Virus genome (UHGV): UHGV-1746005
Length of the DNA: 20,218 nucleotides
Strand: one strand, 5' to 3'
DNA from: a virus
Made by a program: the position numbers and the translations under genes. Under the pieces are notes generated by a model that saw only the letters and a program-made list of their open reading frames with translations, was not told the origin of the DNA and searched no databases. Below, piece by piece: positions 1 through 17,366 of this stretch (within the stretch, counting starts at the first letter, position 1; every line of letters starts with the position of its first letter).

Positions 1-403
1 GCTCTTCCGACGTGCTGTTAGTGGCACTACTGAGCTGAGTGATGCCTTTCGCTGTCAATGAAGCTGTTGGCACACCAGTAATCTGATTCCAGGGATGTGT
101 ATGACTGGATGGTGCCTTTCCGGCTGCTAGATCGTATGCAGCTTTAACCGCTTTTGGCGTTGCAGCTAATGTTTCAGAAGTGCTGTTGGTGTCGCTACTG
201 AGCTGAACTATCCCTTTTTGTGTCGTGGTTGCATCCTGGGCTGTATACTTCCCGTTAGCCAGGTCATATGCAGCCTTGACAGCTTTCGGTGTGGCGGCCA
301 GCACTTCAGACGTGCTGAGCTGAACTAATCCCTTTTGCGTTGTGCTTGCATCCTGCGCCGTATACTTGCTTTTCGCCAGATCGTAGGCTTTTTTAACTGC
401 CAG
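1..403 (-). repeat. Intragenic tandem collar repeats of the tail fiber (about 3 units of ~40-45 codons)
   Basis: Recurring DNA and protein units, e.g. AVKKAYDLAKSKYTAQDASTTQKGLVQLS / AVKAAYDLANGKYTAQDATTTQKGIVQLSS / TAKGITQLSSATNSTSEE. Confidence 0.6.
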
Positions 404-3782: not shown

Positions 3783-4138
3783 AGCACCACGTCCTGTGTG
3801 ATAGTTATATCCCTGATACGAATGGATATTTTCAACTTATCAAAAGCATCTCCCTCGGCTACTGACAAGCCAGAAATCGGTATGTCAGGTAAATCTACCG
3901 TCAGTTTTTGCAACAGCATTGCCTCAACCGCAATTTGAACATGCGACAAGTTGGTCGGTTCGTGTTTAAACTGCGGTAAAACATTGCCCCATGACGGATC
4001 TCCGTATACCTCACCCTGATAAGTGTTTAGCCACTCATATAAACGAGCGCCCCAGGCCTCCTCCTGGGACTCATACGTTTTTACGCCGGATAACTCCAGC
4101 GTCAGCAAAGGATCAATTTCGTTATTGTTGGCCATCAA
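3779..4138 (-). CDS. Small baseplate protein, 119 aa (possible GPW/gp25-like)
   Basis: Size and motif YGDPSWGNVLPQF resemble the gp25/GPW G-x-P-x-F/W-G-x-x-L signature; start overlaps the stop of the SLT-domain gene (4135-4138). Confidence 0.5.
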   Translation of the reverse strand: MMANNNEIDPLLTLELSGVKTYESQEEAWGARLYEWLNTYQGEVYGDPSWGNVLPQFKHEPTNLSHVQIAVEAMLLQKLTVDLPDIPISGLSVAEGDAFDKLKISIRIRDITITQDVVL

Positions 4139-7100
4139 TCAACTCTCGCGTAGTCATTCATCAACGGATCATCAATTGACAGTGGCACCGTGCGCATAAC
4201 GCCCGGTTGAGGCGTGCTGACCTTTACGACAGTTCCCTGGCCTTTCGCCGAGTCTTTAGTGTGCTCTTCAATCCTGGCAAGCAATGAGGTCATCTGCGCA
4301 AACAGCCGCTTCGTTTCACCATCAAGTGAAACGGTATTATCAGCCAACTGCATTGTCGGCTTGGCACCGGAGCCGCCAAGGTCACTAATAACCTGTCCGT
4401 CTATCTGCATACGACCGGTTGGTTGCTGCAAATCGTTGGCGGCAGTCGTCACCAGGGACGTGGAGGCTGGTTCAGGCGCATTATTTTTCCGCATCCCCGG
4501 CGAGTTGCGGAGTTTATCGAATAGTCCATCAATCCCCATTTGTGCGCCGAGTTGGTCAAAGTAACTTGAGTTGCTGGCCACCGGACGCGCCTCTTCAACT
4601 GGCATCGGAGTATCAACATACACATTGCCAGCTGCTGTTGCGGTCCCCTTCCCTCGTGCACGTTCTTCGAGCGTTCCCTGAACGACTTCCCGACGCATAC
4701 CCCGGCCATTCATGAATTTGTTGACCAGATCGTTAACACCAACAGCATTGCCAATTTTGTCTACCAGACCGCCTTTCTCAAACGGGCTATCACCAGGGGT
4801 AAACGCCAGGCCAGTAGACTGATCGATAACAGCGTTATCAGGCAGCTTTTCGTGAATTGCTGGTGCGCTATGATCTACCTTAGAGCCATAAACGGCACCA
4901 TTATTGAGCATCTGCTGATACCCTCTGACACGAGTAACATATTCGCCGGTACCGGCGACTACTCTCCCCTTATCAACATGCCCCATACCAGCATGATAGG
5001 CAGCTATTGCACGACCCTGATCACCGTTATAACGGTTCATCAGCATACTTAGGTATCTGGCGGCACCATCAGCTGCTTTTCGTGTATCCATGGCATCAGC
5101 ATCGCTGAGTCCAAGATCCTCCCTTGTACCTTTAGTGATCTGAAAAGCCCCAAGGGCAGATGAAAGTTTGTTCCCGTTTTTGTCTACTGGATTTCCAGTT
5201 CTCTGGCCTGCACTAGACTCTGCGGATGCAACTGCTGACAGAATCCCTTTTTCAAGCCCATACTTACGTTCAAGCTCATCAAAATAATCGGCATTGTCAG
5301 AAATCCATTGGTATCCGGCAGCATTTAATTTTGGCAAAGAAACATCCTTGCCATTGTTAAATCGACGTTTATCTATCTCATATGCACTTAATGCTTCCTC
5401 CTTACCTGTAGCAGACTGGCCCAAGGCAGCATCAATTGTTTGTGCTGCTTTATTTCCTGTTTCTACGGCATTTGCCTTGATAATCTGATTGGCAGTTTCT
5501 TTAACTGTTTTATTGCTATCTTTCGCTGTATCTAGGGATGCATTTACAACACGAGTGACAATATTACCCTTTTTAGGGGTATATTCAGTTTTAGGAGCAT
5601 TGCCCTCCTGACGTTCTTTAGCAGGTGTTTTTAATTCAGGTTTAACCTCTTTCGCATCCGCTTTTTTGACTAGCTTTGATGCAACCCAGGCTACAGGGGT
5701 GCTCTGAACAGCGGCATCTACAACTTCACCTGAAAGCTCTTTTGCGGCACTCCATAGATTACTGCCAGCCTCTTTAATGTATTTCCCTGGGTTCTTAATG
5801 AAATCAATTGCACTATTAATTGCATCACTGAAAACCTGTTTCAGGTTATCGACAGTAAAGAAGTTTTTGATGGCGTCTAATTTTTCGTTCAGATTCTTTG
5901 TAGTGTCACTGAACCAGGCTGAAATAGCATCGCCAATCTTGGCTGTGTAATCGTTGAATGTTGTGGATATGGTGTCACCAAGGTTAGAAATATATGTTTC
6001 TAAATTGGTAATCCCACTATCAATGGCCTGGGCAATACTTTCCGTCGAAAATGATTGCAACATATTGCCGATATCCTCAAATCCAAGTGATTTGAGAACG
6101 CCACCAATGGCATTGCTAATACCAGATACCAGTCCTCCCATATCGAGAACGTTAGCCAGTGTATAAGCCGCTTTTTGCTGAAAAGATGGATCTTCCCCAT
6201 CCTTAAGCCCAAAGGTCCGACGTTGTGCTTCTGTATCATTCCAACCGGTTACCGCATCATAGATACCTCCAGCCACCGTGCCGACTAGCGGAATTGCGCG
6301 TAAAGCCCCCTTTGCAAAAGCCTTAACACCTAGTTTCTCCAATCCCTTAGTTGCAAGTTTTCCGGCACCGCGAGTAGCCAATTCGCCAGCTTCTTTGGCA
6401 GCAGCTTTTTTCCCACCAAAGCCCAATAAGCTTGCAACTTTTTTTATACCTAAAGCGCCTAGTGCCATCGAGCCAACTTTCTTTAGTGCCCCACGGCCAA
6501 AAATAAGGGAAGCAATACCACCGGCCCCCTTCCCTAACAGGCTAAATAATTTGGACAGCAAGCCGCCCTTCTTTTTCCCGGTGTTTTTGGCTATCTGATC
6601 AAGGGCGCTGAGAATCTTGTCATTGCCCTCTTTAATTTCGCTGGTCTGATCCTGAAGTTCCTGAACCGTCCGTTTTTGGGTGTTAACCTGAACGACATCG
6701 GCACTACTTTGCGATTTACGCCTAAAAAAACCTTTTCTACGGCTGTTATCGTCATTGCCACGAATCACATCGGCAATTGACTTTCTGGCACCATTAAGCG
6801 AACCGCCAACTTCTTTTGATATTCCGCCAAGCTCCTTTCCTGCTGCCCACAATGGACCAGCAACGGCATAACCTAAAGCATCGACGGCACGAGTCTCTGA
6901 AGGGTTACCTATGCCTTCAGCTACTTTTGACAGTTTTTTTAATAAACCCGATTCAGCATTTAGACGCTCATCATCCTCTTTGCGCCTGGCCTTTTCAGCA
7001 CGTTCAGCACGGGCATCTTCCGCTGCGGCCTTACTCCCTGACTTTCCAATAAAACGACCACGCGCATCGCGTTGGTTTTGGCTTTTTTGCGCACCGCCTT

Positions 7101-7812
7101 TTTGACCGAACATTTCGCGAGCGTGTTCGGCTGCTTCGGTCCGTTGCGCCTTTACATCTTCTGTTATAGCCTTCCTGCGTCTTTTTTTACCCTTTGGTGT
7201 AGTTGATTTGGCCTGCTGTTCCTGTTGAGCAATGCCCTCCTGAACTACACGAGAAACGTCCCCTAAATTAAGCCGTTTCATTGCGTCAACAATAGGGTCT
7301 ACTGATGGCGCATTGGCCACAAAGTCTGGCCGGGAATTTTCGATTGTTCGATTTAATGCCGACACACTGCGAGATACTGGGTCAACCGTTGCAACGCGTT
7401 CCCCTTTCAAATCACGAGCGAGTTTGACCGTTTCTAACCGCTGTGCTTTAACATCCTCTGTTATTGCCTCTCTTCGTCTATTTGGGGGATTGTGCGCTGT
7501 TGGTGCAGCCTGCTGTTCACGGTTAGTGACTTTGTCCTCCCGTATACGAGAAACGCCCCCTAAATTAAGCCGTTTCATTGCGTCAACAATAGAGTCCACT
7601 GATGGCGCATTGGTCACAAAGTCAGGACGTGAATTTTCGATTGTGCGATTTAATGCCGACACACTGCGAGAGACAGGATCAACTGTAGCAACTCGCCCCC
7701 CTTTCAAATCTTCAACGGCTTCCCGAATACCTGCAAGCTCTTCCAGCTCTTTTGCGCTGGCGGTTTCAACCGTCCTTATCACATCGTCAATGTTGGCGTT
7801 TTTTCTTTCCAT
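4135..7812 (-). CDS. sit: Tail tape-measure-like protein with internal lytic transglycosylase (SLT) domain, 1225 aa; resembles P1 Sit
   Basis: SLT hallmarks in residues ~835-960 (DNA about 4930-5310): catalytic-type E-S in AVASAESSAG, GAFQITKGT, AAYHAGMG. Central glycine-rich hydrophobic segments typical of tape-measure proteins; basic coiled N-terminus with a tandem internal duplication. Confidence 0.8.
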   Translation of the reverse strand: MERKNANIDDVIRTVETASAKELEELAGIREAVEDLKGGRVATVDPVSRSVSALNRTIENSRPDFVTNAPSVDSIVDAMKRLNLGGVSRIREDKVTNREQQAAPTAHNPPNRRREAITEDVKAQRLETVKLARDLKGERVATVDPVSRSVSALNRTIENSRPDFVANAPSVDPIVDAMKRLNLGDVSRVVQEGIAQQEQQAKSTTPKGKKRRRKAITEDVKAQRTEAAEHAREMFGQKGGAQKSQNQRDARGRFIGKSGSKAAAEDARAERAEKARRKEDDERLNAESGLLKKLSKVAEGIGNPSETRAVDALGYAVAGPLWAAGKELGGISKEVGGSLNGARKSIADVIRGNDDNSRRKGFFRRKSQSSADVVQVNTQKRTVQELQDQTSEIKEGNDKILSALDQIAKNTGKKKGGLLSKLFSLLGKGAGGIASLIFGRGALKKVGSMALGALGIKKVASLLGFGGKKAAAKEAGELATRGAGKLATKGLEKLGVKAFAKGALRAIPLVGTVAGGIYDAVTGWNDTEAQRRTFGLKDGEDPSFQQKAAYTLANVLDMGGLVSGISNAIGGVLKSLGFEDIGNMLQSFSTESIAQAIDSGITNLETYISNLGDTISTTFNDYTAKIGDAISAWFSDTTKNLNEKLDAIKNFFTVDNLKQVFSDAINSAIDFIKNPGKYIKEAGSNLWSAAKELSGEVVDAAVQSTPVAWVASKLVKKADAKEVKPELKTPAKERQEGNAPKTEYTPKKGNIVTRVVNASLDTAKDSNKTVKETANQIIKANAVETGNKAAQTIDAALGQSATGKEEALSAYEIDKRRFNNGKDVSLPKLNAAGYQWISDNADYFDELERKYGLEKGILSAVASAESSAGQRTGNPVDKNGNKLSSALGAFQITKGTREDLGLSDADAMDTRKAADGAARYLSMLMNRYNGDQGRAIAAYHAGMGHVDKGRVVAGTGEYVTRVRGYQQMLNNGAVYGSKVDHSAPAIHEKLPDNAVIDQSTGLAFTPGDSPFEKGGLVDKIGNAVGVNDLVNKFMNGRGMRREVVQGTLEERARGKGTATAAGNVYVDTPMPVEEARPVASNSSYFDQLGAQMGIDGLFDKLRNSPGMRKNNAPEPASTSLVTTAANDLQQPTGRMQIDGQVISDLGGSGAKPTMQLADNTVSLDGETKRLFAQMTSLLARIEEHTKDSAKGQGTVVKVSTPQPGVMRTVPLSIDDPLMNDYARVD
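7150..7743 (-). repeat. Tandem in-frame duplication (2 x ~297 bp, 99 codons) inside the N-terminal region of the SLT/tape-measure gene
   Basis: Near-identical blocks at ~7211-7413 and ~7508-7710 (e.g. CCCCTAAATTAAGCCGTTTCATTGCGTCAACAATAG...), with weaker similarity extending to ~7150 and ~7743. Protein repeats: KGGRVATVDPVSRSVSALNRTIENSRPDFV(T/A)NAPSVD(S/P)IVDAMKRLNLG. Confidence 0.85.
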
Positions 7813-11312: not shown

Positions 11313-11444
11313 TTAATAGTCATTGATCGCAAAGGCGTAAACGTGCCCAAGGTATTTCGTATAATCGGTACAAATCTCCTTTACGCTTGATGCTGCATTA
11401 ACAGTCCCAGCCATAAATAATAACGGTAGTAATAGTTTTCTCAT
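11313..11444 (-). CDS. Short ORF (43 aa) with signal-peptide-like N-terminus, first gene of the secreted-protein operon
   Basis: Not in the ORF track (below size cut-off); ATG at 11442-11444 with SD AGGTGAGG; MRKLLLPLLFMAGTVNA|ASS...; stop TAA lies 19 nt before the next start. Confidence 0.4.
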   Translation of the reverse strand: MRKLLLPLLFMAGTVNAASSVKEICTDYTKYLGHVYAFAINDY

Positions 11445-11540
11445 TATAACCTCACCTGCCTTATAACTCATTTAGGGTACATATTTTCGCCTTTAAAAAA
11501 AAGAGGTTATTAGATCCAACTGTGTATTTATTAAACAAAT

Positions 11541-11557
11541 AATGCTCTAATAAATTT
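11541..11557 (+). promoter_or_regulatory. C1-repressor-operator-like 17-mer (AATGCTCTAATAAATTT) upstream of the immunity-operon promoter
   Basis: 16/17 match to the P1 C1 operator consensus ATTGCTCTAATAAATTT (recalled from the literature); a second near-identical copy is at 13212-13228, with similarity extending ~20 bp further (TTTT(T/C)TAAGT...GAAT). Confidence 0.6.
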
Positions 11558-11595
11558 GTATTTTTAAGTCGCGAATGCTATCTTTTCGCATCATA

Positions 11596-11624
11596 TTGAC
11601 CTTTTAATCGTTCAGGCTTATAGT
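11596..11624 (+). promoter_or_regulatory. Sigma70-type promoter for the leader/icd/ant transcript (-35 TTGACC, 17-bp spacer, -10 TATAGT)
   Basis: -35 at 11596-11601 and -10 at 11619-11624 with optimal spacing; ~40 bp downstream of the operator-like 17-mer and ~240 bp upstream of the Icd-like start. Confidence 0.45.
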
Positions 11625-11699
11625 TCCACCGTCGTAGCAAATTCTGCGACCGGGTTTGACAGCCTGAATGTTAGTGCGGACAACCGCAGATTTCCGATA

Positions 11700-11815
11700 T
11701 TGCGGTATTTTTGTGTCCGTAAACCGCGTTACGCCCGAATTATGGTGGGGCGTGATGGGGAGGCTTCGGCCTGCTGGTTTCACTAACGCCAGTCTGTCAA
11801 CCCTGTCACGTCCTG
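11700..11815 (+). ncRNA. Candidate c4/CI-type antisense regulatory RNA within the leader (boundaries approximate)
   Basis: Structured GC-rich leader: hairpin ACGCCC...GGGCGT (11731-11753), UUCG-tetraloop hairpin AGGC-TTCG-GCCT (11761-11772), and tandem CTGTCA elements (11794-11799, 11803-11808) complementary to TTGACAG copies at 11655-11661 and 11823-11829. Confidence 0.3.
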
Positions 11816-11870
11816 CCACCTGTTTGACAGCGGGTAGCAGGTTGTTAAACCTGTTAGTGAGGCCGTAACT

Positions 11871-12092
11871 ATGGTTAATGCCAATCCTTGCACACGCCCA
11901 GAATTCATCTGGCGTTTCTATTCCTGTAAAAAACACCACTATCACTTCGTTATCGCAGCAACTGAAGACGAAGCACGCTCTCAATTGCCTGATGGCCCCT
12001 GCATTTTTACTGCCCGTTTTTCTACTAACTCGCGCAATTCACTTAGTTACTGGAACCTCCCCTTCTCTGCCGACGTTCAGGGGGGTTTATGA
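11871..12092 (+). CDS. icd: Icd-like / Ash-family small protein (73 aa)
   Basis: 73-codon ORF with SD GAGG; motif ...EFIWRFY...FVIAATEDEARSQL... resembles Icd-like proteins; sits between the structured leader and the antirepressor gene as in P1 immI (recalled). Confidence 0.55.
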   Translation: MVNANPCTRPEFIWRFYSCKKHHYHFVIAATEDEARSQLPDGPCIFTARFSTNSRNSLSYWNLPFSADVQGGL

Positions 12093-12152
12093 AAAAAACC
12101 TCTCGTCACCCGTAATGAAATAGCCGAAGCGATCGCTTTGCATACTGCCTGT

Positions 12153-13133
12153 ATGCCGACACGGGAGATCCCCGGCGCAATTGCTAACTATTTCATGATA
12201 ACCAGGCGTTTTTATACCCGAACAGATAAGGCTGTGATCAACAGGCTACTGATAGCCGAGATCAGGGATTATTTGATTGAACAAGGACGTCTACGTTACG
12301 CAACAGTGGCAGCAGAAATAAGAAAGGAGGCACATAGAATGACCGGTAATAATTTGAATGTTGAAAAAACAGCACCTGTTACGTCAGCTACGCCAGCACC
12401 AGCCGTGAATATCATCCCCAACACCGGAGACACAATCGACAGCCAAACATTGTTGAAGATGGTCAATGAGGCACGCAAGTTATGTGGAGAACCAGAGGTT
12501 AGAAACAATAAATTCATCGAAAAAATACTCGATGAACTTGAAGGTGAATTTTACACAAAAAGTGCAAAATCCCATGGCACAAGGGCTGGGCGCTCTTTTG
12601 AGGTCATCACCATGACCTACAAACAAGCCCTGCGAGTCGCCGCGCGCGAGTCAAAAGCGGTCCGCCGTTCGCTGATCGACAAACTGGAAGAATTGCAGCA
12701 GGCAAACTCCCCTGCCCCATCGATCCCCCAAACATTACCAGAAGCTCTACGCCTGGCTGCCGAGTTGGCAGAACAGAAAATGCAGCTGGAACAACAGCTG
12801 GTGGCCGCAGCCCCTAAAGTCGATTTTGCCGACCGGGTATCAGTGGCTAATGGAATCCTGATCGGGAACTTTGCAAAGGTCGTTGGACTTAAGCAAAACG
12901 CCCTTTTCTCATGGTTGCGCCAGAACGGCATTCTCATGGCTTTTGGTGCGCGCAAAAACGTACCGCGCCAGCAGTACATTAACGCCGGGTATTTCACGGT
13001 GAAAGAAGTGGTGCTGGATGATGAAAATGGCTACCAGATACGGCTGACGCCCCAATTAACGGGTAAAGGCCAGCAGTGGTTAACTCGCAAGCTACTTGAT
13101 GCTGGTTTGTTAAAACCAGTAGCAATAGGTTAA
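12153..13133 (+). CDS. ant1: Phage antirepressor with C-terminal KilAC (ANT) domain; long form 326 aa from ATG 12153, nested in-frame short form 264 aa from ATG 12339
   Basis: C-terminal PQTLPEALRLAAELAEQK...NFAKVVGLKQNALFSWLRQNGIL...GYFTVKEV...LTGKGQQWL matches the KilAC domain and is paralogous to the C-terminus of the next gene. The internal ATG at 12339 has a very strong SD (AAGGAGG); the upstream in-frame part has no obvious SD. Confidence 0.7.
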   Translation: MPTREIPGAIANYFMITRRFYTRTDKAVINRLLIAEIRDYLIEQGRLRYATVAAEIRKEAHRMTGNNLNVEKTAPVTSATPAPAVNIIPNTGDTIDSQTLLKMVNEARKLCGEPEVRNNKFIEKILDELEGEFYTKSAKSHGTRAGRSFEVITMTYKQALRVAARESKAVRRSLIDKLEELQQANSPAPSIPQTLPEALRLAAELAEQKMQLEQQLVAAAPKVDFADRVSVANGILIGNFAKVVGLKQNALFSWLRQNGILMAFGARKNVPRQQYINAGYFTVKEVVLDDENGYQIRLTPQLTGKGQQWLTRKLLDAGLLKPVAIG

Positions 13134-13144
13134 CAAAAGAAAAA

Positions 13145-13168
13145 AACCTGCCAGCAAACTGGCAGGTT
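13145..13168. terminator. Intergenic terminator hairpin (ACCTGCCAG-CAAA-CTGGCAGGT), stronger in the minus orientation
   Basis: 9-bp stem, 4-nt loop; plus-strand tail TTTCTG (weak), minus-strand tail TTTTTTTCTTTT (strong). Confidence 0.5.
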
Positions 13169-13211
13169 TCTGAGCAGATCGTCCAACCCGATCTGGATCG
13201 AGCCAGAAAAA

Positions 13212-13228
13212 TTTGCTCTAATAAATTT
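13212..13228 (+). promoter_or_regulatory. C1-operator-like 17-mer (TTTGCTCTAATAAATTT) upstream of the kilA-like gene
   Basis: 16/17 match to the recalled consensus; ~70 bp upstream of ATG 13298; equivalent in position to the operator controlling kilA-repL in P1. Confidence 0.6.
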
Positions 13229-13246
13229 CGTTTTCTAAGTGCAAAG

Positions 13247-13270
13247 AATCACCATTTCGAGCTGGTGATT
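13247..13270 (+). promoter_or_regulatory. Palindrome AATCACCA-N8-TGGTGATT in the kilA-like leader
   Basis: Perfect 8-bp inverted repeat between the operator-like site and the RBS (GGAG) of the KilA-N gene. Confidence 0.3.
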
Positions 13271-13297
13271 GAAGGTTGATGCAAATTTGGAGAAAAA

Positions 13298-14098
13298 ATG
13301 CAACAAACATTCAATGCGGATATGAATATATCAAACCTTCATCAAAATGTCGATCCTTCAACCACTCTGCCCGTTATTTGTGGTGTTGAAATTACGACCG
13401 ACCGCGCTGGCCGTTACAACCTTAATGCTCTACACAGAGCGAGCGGACTCGGTGCCCATAAAGCGCCAGCTCAATGGCTAAGAACGCTGTCAGCTAAACA
13501 GCTCATCGAAGAGCTTGAAAAAGAAACTATGCAGAATTGCATAGTTTCGTTCGAAGGCCGTGGCGGCGGCACTTTTGCCCATGAATTGCTCGCTGTGGAG
13601 TACGCAGGCTGGATTTCTCCCGCGTTTCGGCTGAAGGTAAACCAGACATTTATCGACTATCGAACCGGAAGATTACAACCTGCTATTCCGCAGAGTCTCC
13701 CTGAAGCTCTCCGTTTGGCTGCCGACCTGGCAGAGCAAAAGCAACGGCTGGAGCAAAAAATGCTTATGGATGCACCTAAAGTCGAATTCGCTGAACGCGT
13801 TGCTACCGCCAGCGGGGTTCTAATCGGCAACTATGCCAAAGTGCTCGGCCTGGGCCAAAACTATCTCTTCACCTGGTTGCGTGATAACGGAATTCTGATC
13901 GCAACCGGTGAACGCAGGAACGTCCCCAAACAAGAATACATATCCCGTGGGTATTTCACCCTTAAAGAAACCGTGATCGATACAAGCAATGGAAGCAGGA
14001 TTTCTTTCACGACTCGTATAACCGGCAAAGGTCAGCAGTGGCTGATGAAGCGATTGCTTGATGCTGGTGTGCTGGTACCTGTCGCGGCAACGCGCTAA
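13298..14098 (+). CDS. kilA: KilA-N + KilAC domain protein (266 aa), P1 KilA-like
   Basis: N-terminal KilA-N signature (GRYNLNALHRASG...WLRT...GGGTFAHELLAVEYAGWISPAFRLKV); C-terminal KilAC shared with the upstream antirepressor (PQSLPEALRLAADLAEQK...GYFTLKET...ITGKGQQWL). SD GGAG; the length equals the 266 codons I recall for P1 kilA. Confidence 0.8.
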   Translation: MQQTFNADMNISNLHQNVDPSTTLPVICGVEITTDRAGRYNLNALHRASGLGAHKAPAQWLRTLSAKQLIEELEKETMQNCIVSFEGRGGGTFAHELLAVEYAGWISPAFRLKVNQTFIDYRTGRLQPAIPQSLPEALRLAADLAEQKQRLEQKMLMDAPKVEFAERVATASGVLIGNYAKVLGLGQNYLFTWLRDNGILIATGERRNVPKQEYISRGYFTLKETVIDTSNGSRISFTTRITGKGQQWLMKRLLDAGVLVPVAATR

Positions 14099-14127
14099 CA
14101 GACGTAGTAAGAACCACCAGCATTGTA

Positions 14128-14973
14128 ATGCTGGCTAAAGTCACTTTCCTGAGCTGTATAACGATGAGCGATTTTACTTTTTCTGGCTATGAATTGGCCT
14201 GCTTTGTAACACACTCCGGTCTATCCCGTAGCGCCGGGCATATCCTGTCGCAATGTGCAAATCTCGCGGCAACAACCAGTGAATACTTCATTCACAAGCC
14301 TCACCGCCTGATCGCGGCAGAAACTGGTTATAGCCAATCAACCGTCGTTCGTGCATTCCGTGAAGCTGTAAACAAAGGAATCCTGTCTGTAGAGATTGTT
14401 ATCGGCGATCACCGTGAACGTCGCGCTAACCTGTACCGGTTTACACCATCCTTTTTGGCCTTCGCACAACAAGCCAAAAATGCGCTGATTGAAAGCAAAT
14501 TAAAGATCTCTTCAGCGGCAACCAAGGTTAAAGCTGTTCTCGCTAAGACATTGGCTTTATTTAATTTTTTATCCACACCCCCATGTCAAAATGATACCCC
14601 CTCCCCCTGTCAGGATGACGTGGCAATAAAGAATAAGAAGTCACAAGTTAAAAAAACAAAAAGATCAGTTTCCGGCGGTGCCGGAACGAGCAGACTCAAA
14701 AAATTGACTTCATGGATCGCTGAGACAAAAGCAAAGGCTGACAATCTGCGGTTATCCAAAAAACGCGCACAAAAACATGAGTTCAAGCAGAAAGTAGAGG
14801 CGGCAGCGCGGAAATATGCTTACCTGAAGAACAAGCGTTCTCCTGATATTGGCGGGGTATCAAACTTCGATAATTTGCCGCATTGCATGACGGTAAACGA
14901 AGCTCTTAATGCGGTTTTAGCCAAAAATAAAGATAACGAAAAATGGGGTATACCGGTAGGATTCAGAGGGTGA
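14128..14973 (+). CDS. repL: HTH DNA-binding protein (281 aa), RepL-like lytic replication initiator candidate
   Basis: Helix-turn-helix IAAETGYSQSTVVRAFREAVNKGIL; Lys-rich C-terminal half; follows the kilA-like gene by 29 nt; length equals the 281 codons I recall for P1 repL. Contains an internal C5/TGTCA repeat block (14577-14613). Confidence 0.55.
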   Translation: MLAKVTFLSCITMSDFTFSGYELACFVTHSGLSRSAGHILSQCANLAATTSEYFIHKPHRLIAAETGYSQSTVVRAFREAVNKGILSVEIVIGDHRERRANLYRFTPSFLAFAQQAKNALIESKLKISSAATKVKAVLAKTLALFNFLSTPPCQNDTPSPCQDDVAIKNKKSQVKKTKRSVSGGAGTSRLKKLTSWIAETKAKADNLRLSKKRAQKHEFKQKVEAAARKYAYLKNKRSPDIGGVSNFDNLPHCMTVNEALNAVLAKNKDNEKWGIPVGFRG

Positions 14974-14976
14974 TAG

Positions 14977-14993
14977 ATTGCTCTAATTATAAC
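14977..14993 (+). promoter_or_regulatory. Degenerate C1-operator-like half-match (ATTGCTCTAATTATAAC)
   Basis: First 11 nt match the recalled consensus and the remainder diverges; lies between the repL-like stop and the AT-rich operon. Confidence 0.25.
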
Positions 14994-15141
14994 CATGCAT
15001 ACTTTCAACACCTCTAGTTTGCCATGAGGAAAACTCATAGGCGTCCTGGTAAGATGACGTAGTTAGCAAATCAGAACGTCCAATTATTGCAATTAATAAA
15101 CAACTAACGGACAATTCTACCTAACAATAAGTGGAGTTAAC

Positions 15142-15846
15142 ATGTTGAACCGAAGAACATTTAATGTATTCTGCGATGAATCCTGTCACCTACTAAATGA
15201 TCATAATAAAGTCATGGTATTGGGTGCGCTTTGGTGTCCTGGCACTATCACAAAAAAAATTGCTAGAGACATCAAGGGATTAAAATTAAAACACAATTTA
15301 AAACCTGATTTCGAAATCAAGTGGACTAAAGTATCTGCGTCCAAAGTTGAATTTTACTTAGAGGTCGTAGATTACTTCTTCAGCAACCCAGCATTGCGCT
15401 TTAGAGGTGTTGTTGTTCCTGATAAAGAGCAACTGGACCATGCTCGATTCCATCAAGATCATAATACTTTCTATTATAAGATGTTTTTTTATGTCTTAAA
15501 AAACATAATAGAAAGTAACAACACATACAATATCTACCTAGATATAAAAGATACTTTAGGTATTGAAAAAATTGAGAAATTAAGAGGAGTTCTTCACAAT
15601 GATCGCTATGATTACAATCATGAGTCGATAAACAGAATTCAACATATACGATCTCATGAAGTGCAACAATTGCAGCTAACGGATCTTTTCATTGGTGCGT
15701 TAGGCTACGTTCATCGAGGAATGAATAGCAACGCGGGAAAAATCCAAGTCATAAACAGGATAAAATCACATACAAACAGGGAGTTACTAAAAAGCACTCT
15801 TCCAACAGAAAGTAAATTTAATATTTTCGTGTGGGAGGCTCGCTGA
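15142..15846 (+). CDS. Hypothetical protein (234 aa), DUF3800-like by N-terminal motif; first gene of an AT-rich two-gene operon
   Basis: ATG with SD GGAG 6 nt upstream; AT-rich by hand count (about 25-35% GC); N-terminal FNVFCDESCH resembles the x-DES-G start I recall for DUF3800 proteins (unverified); the TGA stop overlaps the next ATG. Confidence 0.6.
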   Translation: MLNRRTFNVFCDESCHLLNDHNKVMVLGALWCPGTITKKIARDIKGLKLKHNLKPDFEIKWTKVSASKVEFYLEVVDYFFSNPALRFRGVVVPDKEQLDHARFHQDHNTFYYKMFFYVLKNIIESNNTYNIYLDIKDTLGIEKIEKLRGVLHNDRYDYNHESINRIQHIRSHEVQQLQLTDLFIGALGYVHRGMNSNAGKIQVINRIKSHTNRELLKSTLPTESKFNIFVWEAR

Positions 15847-16310
15847 TGCTTCAAATGCCAGATTTATTGTACTTCAATGGAAGTTGGCAAGAGTATATAG
15901 ACGATGTATATGATGTTGTTAGAGAAGATATTTTAATCTCTAATATAACGTTTAAGGGTCTCCCTGTTCGATTACGTTATTCACCGGAATATGATGGGAA
16001 AGAGTTCGGATTTTGGCATTTAGTATCAGAGGGAAAAATAGAAGAAGAACGAATACCTGATCTTGAACGGTGTAAGCGGATCCGCTGGATCGCGCATATG
16101 ATAAGGAATTATGACCATTGCGATATATCATGTTGGTCTGAAAGACGAGGACCAACTGAAGAGTGGGTAATCTGGAACGAGTGTGAAAACTACGTTGTTG
16201 TGCTATCCGCACGTAGAGACTATTGGCTTCTCAAAACAGCCTATGTTGTAACCTATGACAGTAAAATCAGAACACTCAAACAAAGCAGAAAAAGAGCACT
16301 TGGGACATAA
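15846..16310 (+). CDS. Hypothetical protein (154 aa), translationally coupled partner of the DUF3800-like gene
   Basis: ATG at 15846-15848 overlaps the upstream stop (TGATG); strong SD GGGAGG at 15833-15838; contains R-x5-H (RIRWIAH) and RNYDH motifs; the track ORF starts at an upstream GTG. Confidence 0.55.
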   Translation: MLQMPDLLYFNGSWQEYIDDVYDVVREDILISNITFKGLPVRLRYSPEYDGKEFGFWHLVSEGKIEEERIPDLERCKRIRWIAHMIRNYDHCDISCWSERRGPTEEWVIWNECENYVVVLSARRDYWLLKTAYVVTYDSKIRTLKQSRKRALGT

Positions 16311-16856: not shown

Positions 16857-17366
16857 TTAATCCCACTCAATCCAGTTGTAAACGATACGAAGTGACGGGC
16901 GCACAGCGGCAGTCACATCTTCGGTACTAAAGTCGATTGCATCACTGTAGATTTTGCAGTCCAACATTTCAATTGTTGTAGCAGCTTTTGTCACAGCGTT
17001 AACCCCGGAAGATTTGGATTCAGGGGTAGCAGCCATCGTGATATCAACATAGTCCTTCGCCGCAATGCGATCCTTGATGAACTGAAGAATATCGCCTTCG
17101 ATAGTCTCCACGCACTGGACCTGGATTTCCCCAGAGTTTCGAATTGGTCCGTGCTGGTTGAACTTCACACCATTCGGACCATAGTCCTCCACATCCTCGC
17201 GTGTCATTTCAGGGATTTGCGACGTGCGAACCAGTACGCTGATATCTTCATGGCCTGCAAAAGTGAGCTGGAATTCAGAAGATACCAGTCGTTCGCCTTT
17301 GGCCGCGTTGGCAGTATAGCGGCCCTTAATAAATTTACGGTTTCCCTTAGTGTTATTGTGCCCCAT
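16857..17366 (-). CDS. Virion morphogenesis/structural protein, 169 aa (unassigned)
   Basis: Last gene of the minus-strand operon before the terminator; 11-nt spacing from the upstream gene. Confidence 0.55.
   Translation of the reverse strand: MGHNNTKGNRKFIKGRYTANAAKGERLVSSEFQLTFAGHEDISVLVRTSQIPEMTREDVEDYGPNGVKFNQHGPIRNSGEIQVQCVETIEGDILQFIKDRIAAKDYVDITMAATPESKSSGVNAVTKAATTIEMLDCKIYSDAIDFSTEDVTAAVRPSLRIVYNWIEWD

Follow-up and report, generated by a model that had tools for sequence, protein, structure and literature searches.

In lambdoid phages, with their CI/Cro system, the master repressor of the prophage occludes early lytic promoters, and the C1 repressor of phage P1 is alike in this respect. 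The operators differ, those of P1 being asymmetric and not palindromic. In contrast to the lambdoid OL/OR clusters, the approximately 20 operators of P1 are dispersed over the genome, many of them as single sites (PMC8546580). The operator consensus is quoted as an asymmetric 17 bp sequence, ATTGCTCTAATAAATTT, and 22 operators have been counted in P1 (PMC8546580). In brief, C1 binds the dispersed operators, Lxc raises its affinity, and Coi and a complex of Ant1 and Ant2 antagonise it (PMC8546580, PMC8198154). It is known that C1 restrains its own secondary antagonist, ant, which is also gated by the C4 RNA, and in addition the lytic replicon. Here we describe a stretch of viral DNA of 20,218 nucleotides, UHGV-1746005, referred to as the window, in which a first-stage reader of the raw sequence had noticed three copies of a 17-mer resembling the C1 operator (the original prediction). 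We interpret the copies as the operators Op51, Op53 and Op55. This interpretation is the established immunity circuit, textbook knowledge for P1 and P7, and is already known; as a finding, its rediscovery matters little. It does show that a real, dispersed operator family was recognisable from raw sequence.

The region that holds the three sites (window 11400-15200) is 98.9% identical to P1, with 100% of the query covered, and 96-98% identical to P7, JL22, RCS47, SJ46 and other Punavirus genomes. The counterpart of the entire window in the alignment is P1 37.2-56.8 kb. The whole window is most similar (99.1-99.2%) to plasmids of E. coli, among them AP024695.1 and CP088419.1, the latter an IncY plasmid; between CP088419.1 and window 11391-15143 a single alignment column differs, an extra A in ant1. 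P1-like plasmids of this type are common in E. coli. Judged from the sequence, the window is very probably a stretch of a P1-type phage-plasmid with tail genes at both ends and sim, immI, the lytic replicon and rlfAB, in this order, between them, the motifs being the C1 operators Op51, Op53 and Op55 and with C1 itself encoded far off in immC.

Three copies of the C1 operator motif

Reading the sequence confirms that the three 17-mers lie at the positions given in the original prediction, all on the plus strand. Site 1, AATGCTCTAATAAATTT (11541-11557), and site 2, TTTGCTCTAATAAATTT (13212-13228), each match the consensus at 16 of 17 positions. Site 3, ATTGCTCTAATTATAAC (14977-14993), is the degenerate copy that had been described, with 12 of 17 positions matching without gaps; bases 1-11 are exact and the five mismatches all fall in the last six bases. 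The consensus used in the original prediction is correct and is worded identically in PMC8546580.

All three 17-mers equal their P1 counterparts base for base (AF234172 / NC_005856), and record AF234172 names 'phage repressor C1' as the protein that binds the three orthologous sequences. P1 and the window agree fully in the order, orientation and spacing of the 17-mers and in the promoters and genes on either side of them. Differences are confined to the spacer of promoter P53 (gggtca in P1, gagcca in the window), the repL stop codon (TAA in P1, TGA in the window) and the extra A that shifts the frame of ant1 in the window and is not present in P1. The P7 record AF503408 annotates the three equivalent sites as Op(c4), Op(rep) and Op(rap). 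Op53 and Op55 of P7 are identical in sequence to those of the window, whereas Op51 of P7 starts with TC in place of AA, and to the left of it P7 carries another module, upf50.0/upf50.5 in place of simABC. The claim of a single repressor for the antirepressor operon and for kilA/repL agrees with the annotation of Oc4 and OrepL in AF234172.

The P1 annotation lists 20 monovalent operators, and we built a leave-out weight matrix from the 17 of them that lie outside this window. When the whole window was scored on both strands, sites 1, 2 and 3 ranked first to third with 25.2, 21.4 and 15.3 bits. The next-best sequence in the window scored 10.5 bits, which is inside the range of the shuffled sequences (mean 11.9), so the matrix points to no further operator here; none is expected, since P1 annotates no others at 37-57 kb. 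A search with the consensus allowing at most 3 mismatches gave 2 matches in the window against 0.09 expected; site 3 is missed by this search because of its five mismatches. The exact 9-mer core, TGCTCTAAT, occurs 3 times against 0.22 expected. The annotated P1 operators span 10 to 17 matches of 17 to the consensus, and site 3, with its exact 11 nt core, is inside that range. We regard sites 1 and 2 as unambiguous, while site 3 is credible mainly through its position and its annotation.

One could ask if the copies share no binding protein and are AT-rich, promoter-like sequence that recurs by chance. The motif is indeed AT-rich and includes a -10-like TCTAAT, and the third copy by itself is only marginally over chance. 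Against this, none of 100 shuffles reached the observed count of either the consensus or the core, and the motif exceeds chance. The sites are also identical to annotated operators of the curated P1 and P7 records, and approximately 20 annotated sites of P1 belong to the same 17-mer family. A chance origin of sites 1 and 2 is already refuted by their annotation and by published work, and for the motif as a whole we give it practically no credence.

The conservation of the sites in the population speaks against chance as well, being near-invariant between variable flanks. Contigs from IMG/VR were gathered with patterns placed in the flanks only, which gave 84 loci at the repL end and 73 loci downstream of Op51, and an alignment of the whole block contained 34 distinct haplotypes. 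Bases 3-17 of Op51, which lie outside the search pattern, are identical in 72 of the 73 loci. Among the 34 haplotypes the minor-allele fraction is 0.004 for these bases and 0.002 for Op53, compared to 0.135 in the 150 nt upstream of Op51, where 127 of 150 columns are variable.

The original prediction also held that sites 1 and 2 share about 20 further similar bases downstream. This is overstated: the two flanks share TTTTnTAAGT at +4 to +13 (window 11561-11570 and 13232-13241), with 8 of 9 bases identical from +4 to +12, but the overall ungapped identity is 10 of 23 bases. A T-rich tract of this kind, approximately TTTTTAAG at +4 to +11 and ending in A-A-G/T, follows most of the monovalent operators of P1; examples are Op68, Op83, Op86a, Op88, Op99e and Op2b. 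At +4 to +8 of the 17 other P1 operators, T is found at 56 of 85 bases (binomial P ~7e-9 against a T frequency of 0.35). The tract is in part the -35 hexamer at the operator 3' edge of several annotated promoters (TTGATT, TTGTTT), and the rest of it lies in the spacer. It should be noted that the T-rich tail is an empirical feature of this analysis and not a published criterion. Since it follows most monovalent operators, the functional footprint may be nearer to 25-28 bp than to 17 bp. A private duplication shared by Op51 and Op53 was considered as the origin of their tail and rejected, as the T-rich tail is also found at many other operators.

Two operator-like sequences in P1 (AF234172) are not annotated as operators. 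The first, ATTGCTATAATTATTTG (1485-1501, 19.0 bits), lies upstream of c8, and the second, ATTGCCCTAATGTATTT (17166-17182, 17.2 bits), at the 5' end of darB. These two sites may explain the difference between the 22 operators counted in PMC8546580 and the 20 that are annotated.

Promoters and genes at Op51 and Op53

The P1 record labels the counterpart of Op51 'monovalent C1-controlled operator Oc4; former Op51' and adds that it 'controls expression of c4'. Two plus strand promoters follow. P51a (P2c4, 11555-11584) was transferred from the P1 annotation (1656-1685 of the P1 stretch, offset +9899), and according to this transfer its -35 element is overlapped by the 3' end of Op51. P51b (P1c4, 11596-11624), TTGACC-17-TATAGT, was found with 10 of 12 consensus bases in a promoter scan and coincides with the P1 annotation. 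In a lysogen, C1 together with the co-repressor Lxc would occupy Op51, over the -35 element of P51a, and the c4-icd-ant operon would be off. C1 binding and repression at Op51 are taken here from the annotation of the P1 record.

The immI arrangement of P1 and P7 is present in the window, with the C4 RNA gene and its a1/b1 targets lying between Op51 and icd. The a1/b1 targets of the C4 antisense RNA (11618-11670, plus strand) match Rfam RF03163 with 57.0 bits (gathering threshold 46.7). The gene for the C4 antisense RNA itself, c4 (11738-11823, plus strand), is the secondary immunity repressor of ant; it is annotated in P1 and matches Rfam RF01695 with 68.8 bits (gathering threshold 45). The open reading frame (ORF) of icd (11871-12092, plus strand) is the ortholog of P1 icd and encodes a cell-division inhibitor, translationally coupled to ant.

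The antirepressor gene ant1/ant2 (12089-13133, plus strand) was aligned with P1, P7, RCS47 and CP088419, and its product has a Pfam ANT/KilAC domain (7.7e-31). The domain lies in Ant2, and ant2 (12339-13133) is intact. The ant1 frame is shifted by a run of seven A (12092-12098) directly after the start codon; P1, P7 and CP088419 have six A, and genomes of the RCS47 type read AAAACA at this position. The ant1 product in the window is thus M-K-K-T-S-R-H-P-stop (8 codons). The run of seven A is absent from all of 58 other loci (0/58). Either the extra A is a sequencing error in the homopolymer, or Ant1 was inactivated recently. If the frameshift is real, this copy may carry an inactivated antirepressor gene, and one exit route from lysogeny would be weakened.

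The 25 nt upstream of Op51 (11516-11540), around the -35 element of the predicted promoter PsimA, are hypervariable, with more than 35 variants in the 73 loci. An imperfect inverted repeat, TTGTG(C/T)A...T(G/A)(C/A)ACAA, is found in this region. Some haplotypes have ATTGCACAAATAATGCT at this place, and with it a second, weak operator-like sequence that overlaps Op51; its counterpart in this window scores 4.9 bits only.

The P1 counterpart of Op53 (OrepL) carries the annotation 'controls expression of kilA and repL'. The promoter P53 (PkilA, 13194-13222, plus strand) was transferred from the P1 annotation, and its sequence is conserved in the window. It has a -35 element TGGATC and a -10 element TCTAAT (13217-13222), the latter inside Op53. 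Three GATC Dam sites near P53 (13177, 13190 and 13196) are conserved. It has been reported that C1 at Op53 blocks P53, and hence the expression of kilA and repL in lysogeny (PMC9948254, citing Eliason & Sternberg 1987 and Velleman et al. 1987). In the window, C1 on Op53 would likewise cover the -10 element of P53, so that kilA-repL and lytic replication from oriL would be off.

The kilA ORF (13298-14098, plus strand) is annotated in P1, and its product contains the Pfam domains KilA-N (2.8e-21) and ANT (2e-32). An antisense promoter, P53as (PaskilA, 13325-13353, minus strand), TCGACA-17-TATATT, was found with 10 of 12 consensus bases and a TG element and is likewise annotated in P1; like P51b, it was located at its annotated place by the independent promoter scan. 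The lytic replication initiator is encoded by repL (14128-14973, plus strand), an ORF also annotated in P1, with oriL inside the gene. Between ant and Op53 the terminator scan placed a terminator-like hairpin with a 13 bp stem (13142-13171), the T tail of which is on the minus strand. The C-terminal halves of ant (12738-13007) and kilA (13700-13969) are paralogous, with approximately 66% DNA identity and the ANT/KilAC Pfam domain in both.

The third site, rlfAB and the cognate repressor

Op55 (Orlf; Op(rap) in P7) is located in front of rlfA and rlfB, and its P1 equivalent is entered in the record under 'monovalent C1-controlled operator Orlf; former Op55'. The site begins 3 nt past the repL stop codon. 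The gene rlfA (15142-15846, plus strand) is an ORF whose product matches Pfam DUF3800 (7.6e-14), and it is followed by the ORF rlfB (15846-16310, plus strand). Both genes were scored as non-essential by CRISPR interference (PMC10695390).

Several observations weigh against taking all three 17-mers as operators of a single C1 repressor. A tblastn search of the window gave no match to c1, and the cognate repressor is therefore inferred from relatives. The other observations concern Op55, which matches the consensus at 12 positions only. Its matrix score, taken alone, was matched in 18 of 200 dinucleotide shuffles (9%). The 3' hexamer of the site depends on the cargo variant and is either TATAAC or CTGGAG, neither of which resembles the AAATTT of the consensus. 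The T-rich tail is missing, with 3 of 8 matches to TTTTTAAG compared to 8 of 8 for Op51 and 7 of 8 for Op53. Finally, the promoter scan found no promoter overlapping Op55, while Op51 lies over the -35 element of P51a and Op53 holds the -10 element of P53.

The absence of c1 from the window is expected, because c1 is located at 93.2-94.1 kb on the P1 map, approximately 42 kb away. Neither lxc nor coi was matched when the window was searched with tblastn. Among complete relatives the closest is CP088419.1, which encodes C1 with 99.3%, Lxc with 100% and Coi with 100% identity. Scored at a threshold of at least 12 bits, CP088419.1 also has every annotated P1 operator site except Oc1b, a weak half-site that falls below the 12-bit threshold in P1 too. 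The original prediction had made its case depend on a C1-like repressor in the element. By proxy, that repressor is found in CP088419.1; it is not found directly, c1 being outside the window.

The sole predicted rlfA promoter, PrlfA, TTGCAA-17-GACAAT (15087-15115, from the P1 annotation), lies approximately 95 nt downstream of Op55. Judged by eye, the -35 candidates 17 nt upstream of TCTAAT or TATAAC at Op55 are poor. The terminator scan found no terminator-like site between repL and rlfA. We also considered that Op55 could be bivalent like Op72ab and Op99ab and rejected this, as an inverted partner is lacking: compared by hand, 14988-15004 in reverse complement agrees with the consensus at approximately 4 of 17 positions only.

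It is possible, although we lean against it, that Op55 is a vestigial half-operator, an 11 nt core left at the end of the repL module upon cargo exchange, and that rlfA and rlfB are regulated only through Op53, by way of read-through, or by their own promoter. The points just listed would fit such a remnant: every mismatch is in the 3' hexamer, the score is within reach of shuffled sequence, the T-tract of most operators does not follow, and the predicted PrlfA is well separated from the site. In addition, P1-like homology stops exactly after the core, ATTGCTCTAAT, and SJ46 lacks the Op55 site entirely. However, the curated records of P1 and P7 both list a C1-controlled operator here, under the historical name Op55. 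Bases 1-11 bear most of the information of the motif (approximately 16 of 21 bits), and the annotated operator Op99c, which also has 12 of 17 matches, scores below Op55 (15.6 versus 16.5 bits).

Most likely, Op55 is a weak C1 site. Its status as an operator comes from the annotation of the records, and its function is inferred only. It could be a half-strength site that acts as a weak C1 roadblock to read-through into rlfA and rlfB, or an auxiliary anchor for C1, and not a classical promoter-occluding operator. We prefer these two roles because there is no terminator-like site between repL and rlfA and no overlapping promoter. The original prediction had added the cargo operon to the set under common control as a possibility, and this part stays hedged: the annotated Orlf does precede rlfA and rlfB, but with a partial match and far from PrlfA.

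Module borders and other features of the window

The low-GC flanks of the c4-repL block correspond to the published variable regions 4 (simABC) and 5 (rlfA-rlfB-pmgF), which are hot spots of variation (PMC9603915; PMC6906374). The word 'operator' does not occur in either of these two papers. In our comparison, the homology between P7-type and sim-type genomes begins at base 3 of Op51 (window 11543), and at the right-hand end homology stops after base 11 of Op55 (window 14987), that is, after ATTGCTCTAAT. Past this core, 13 of the 84 loci continue with TATAAC and rlfAB. The other 71 continue with a CTGGAG-type sequence (CTGGAG in 70, CTGGGG in 1) and other cargo, the alternative junction reading ATTGCTCTAATCTGGAG... 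The minor-allele fraction directly past the Op55 core is 0.24-0.27 among the 34 haplotypes. The GC content changes in steps at Op51 and Op55, from 0.30-0.35 in sim to 0.45-0.53 in c4-repL and to 0.34-0.40 in rlfAB. A third junction at the edge of an operator is found in phage Ro157c2, where homology to P1 begins at the first bases of Op2b.

From these junctions one may speculate that the operator cores, besides binding C1, are preferred joints for module exchange in P1-like phage-plasmids, either as short shared homology or because only recombinants that keep the operator survive. The exact start and stop of homology at Op51 and Op55, the GC steps at both sites and the third case at Op2b would all agree with this. 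In three genome comparisons, 3 of approximately 52 distinct P1 breakpoints fall inside the 17 bp operators, where an even spread of breakpoints along the genome would give approximately 0.2. On the other hand, most breakpoints are elsewhere, and the comparison of P1 with CP088419 has none at operators. The 3 of 52 are not clearly enriched under a null that allows intergenic breakpoints only, with intergenic sequence estimated at roughly 10% of the genome. Each junction has two or three alternative flanks, so that few independent exchange events are needed. Moreover, an equal picture at Op51 and Op2b would arise if purifying selection preserves whichever functional element comes first in a transcription unit. 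We consider a role of the cores as preferred joints unlikely. The broader statement that mosaic breakpoints are generally located at operators was rejected on the same counts.

A related proposal is that the C1 operator cores are exact mosaic joints at which AT-rich modules (sim, rlfAB and the alternatives) dock by micro-homology or by selection for repressor control, with Op55 as a half-operator made or kept by cargo exchange. We hold this to be unlikely as well. The exact coincidence of the variable-region borders with the Op51 and Op55 cores may be the only new angle of this analysis, and a modest one; it is a lead and not a result. The coincidence points to a way in which accessory cargo, in relatives also resistance genes, could be swapped in beside or under prophage control.

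The overall gene order of the window was derived from its ORFs and the P1 annotation. The tail-fibre, baseplate and sit genes come first and are encoded on the minus strand, followed by simCBA, also on the minus strand. The plus strand genes c4, icd, ant1/2, kilA, repL, rlfA and rlfB occupy the middle of the window, and further tail genes are found after rlfB on the minus strand.

The sit ORF (4135-7812, minus strand), encoding a tape-measure/transglycosylase protein, has 1225 amino acids, compared to 1140 in P1 and 1124 in CP088419. Two BLAST pieces of sit share approximately 300 bp of P1 coordinates (44010-44308), an overlap that is consistent with an internal tandem duplication. Window 5451-7413 is merely 84.6% identical to P1.

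With 99.4% identity, the first 317 nucleotides of the window match a unit that occurs in three consecutive copies, at a spacing of 300 bp, within the CP088419.1 tail-fibre gene (2044-2960). In P1 these 317 nucleotides have a partial match alone, of 75%, to repeated elements in gene S. Judging by these matches, we assign window 1-317 to a variable-number repeat in the constant part of the tail fibre.

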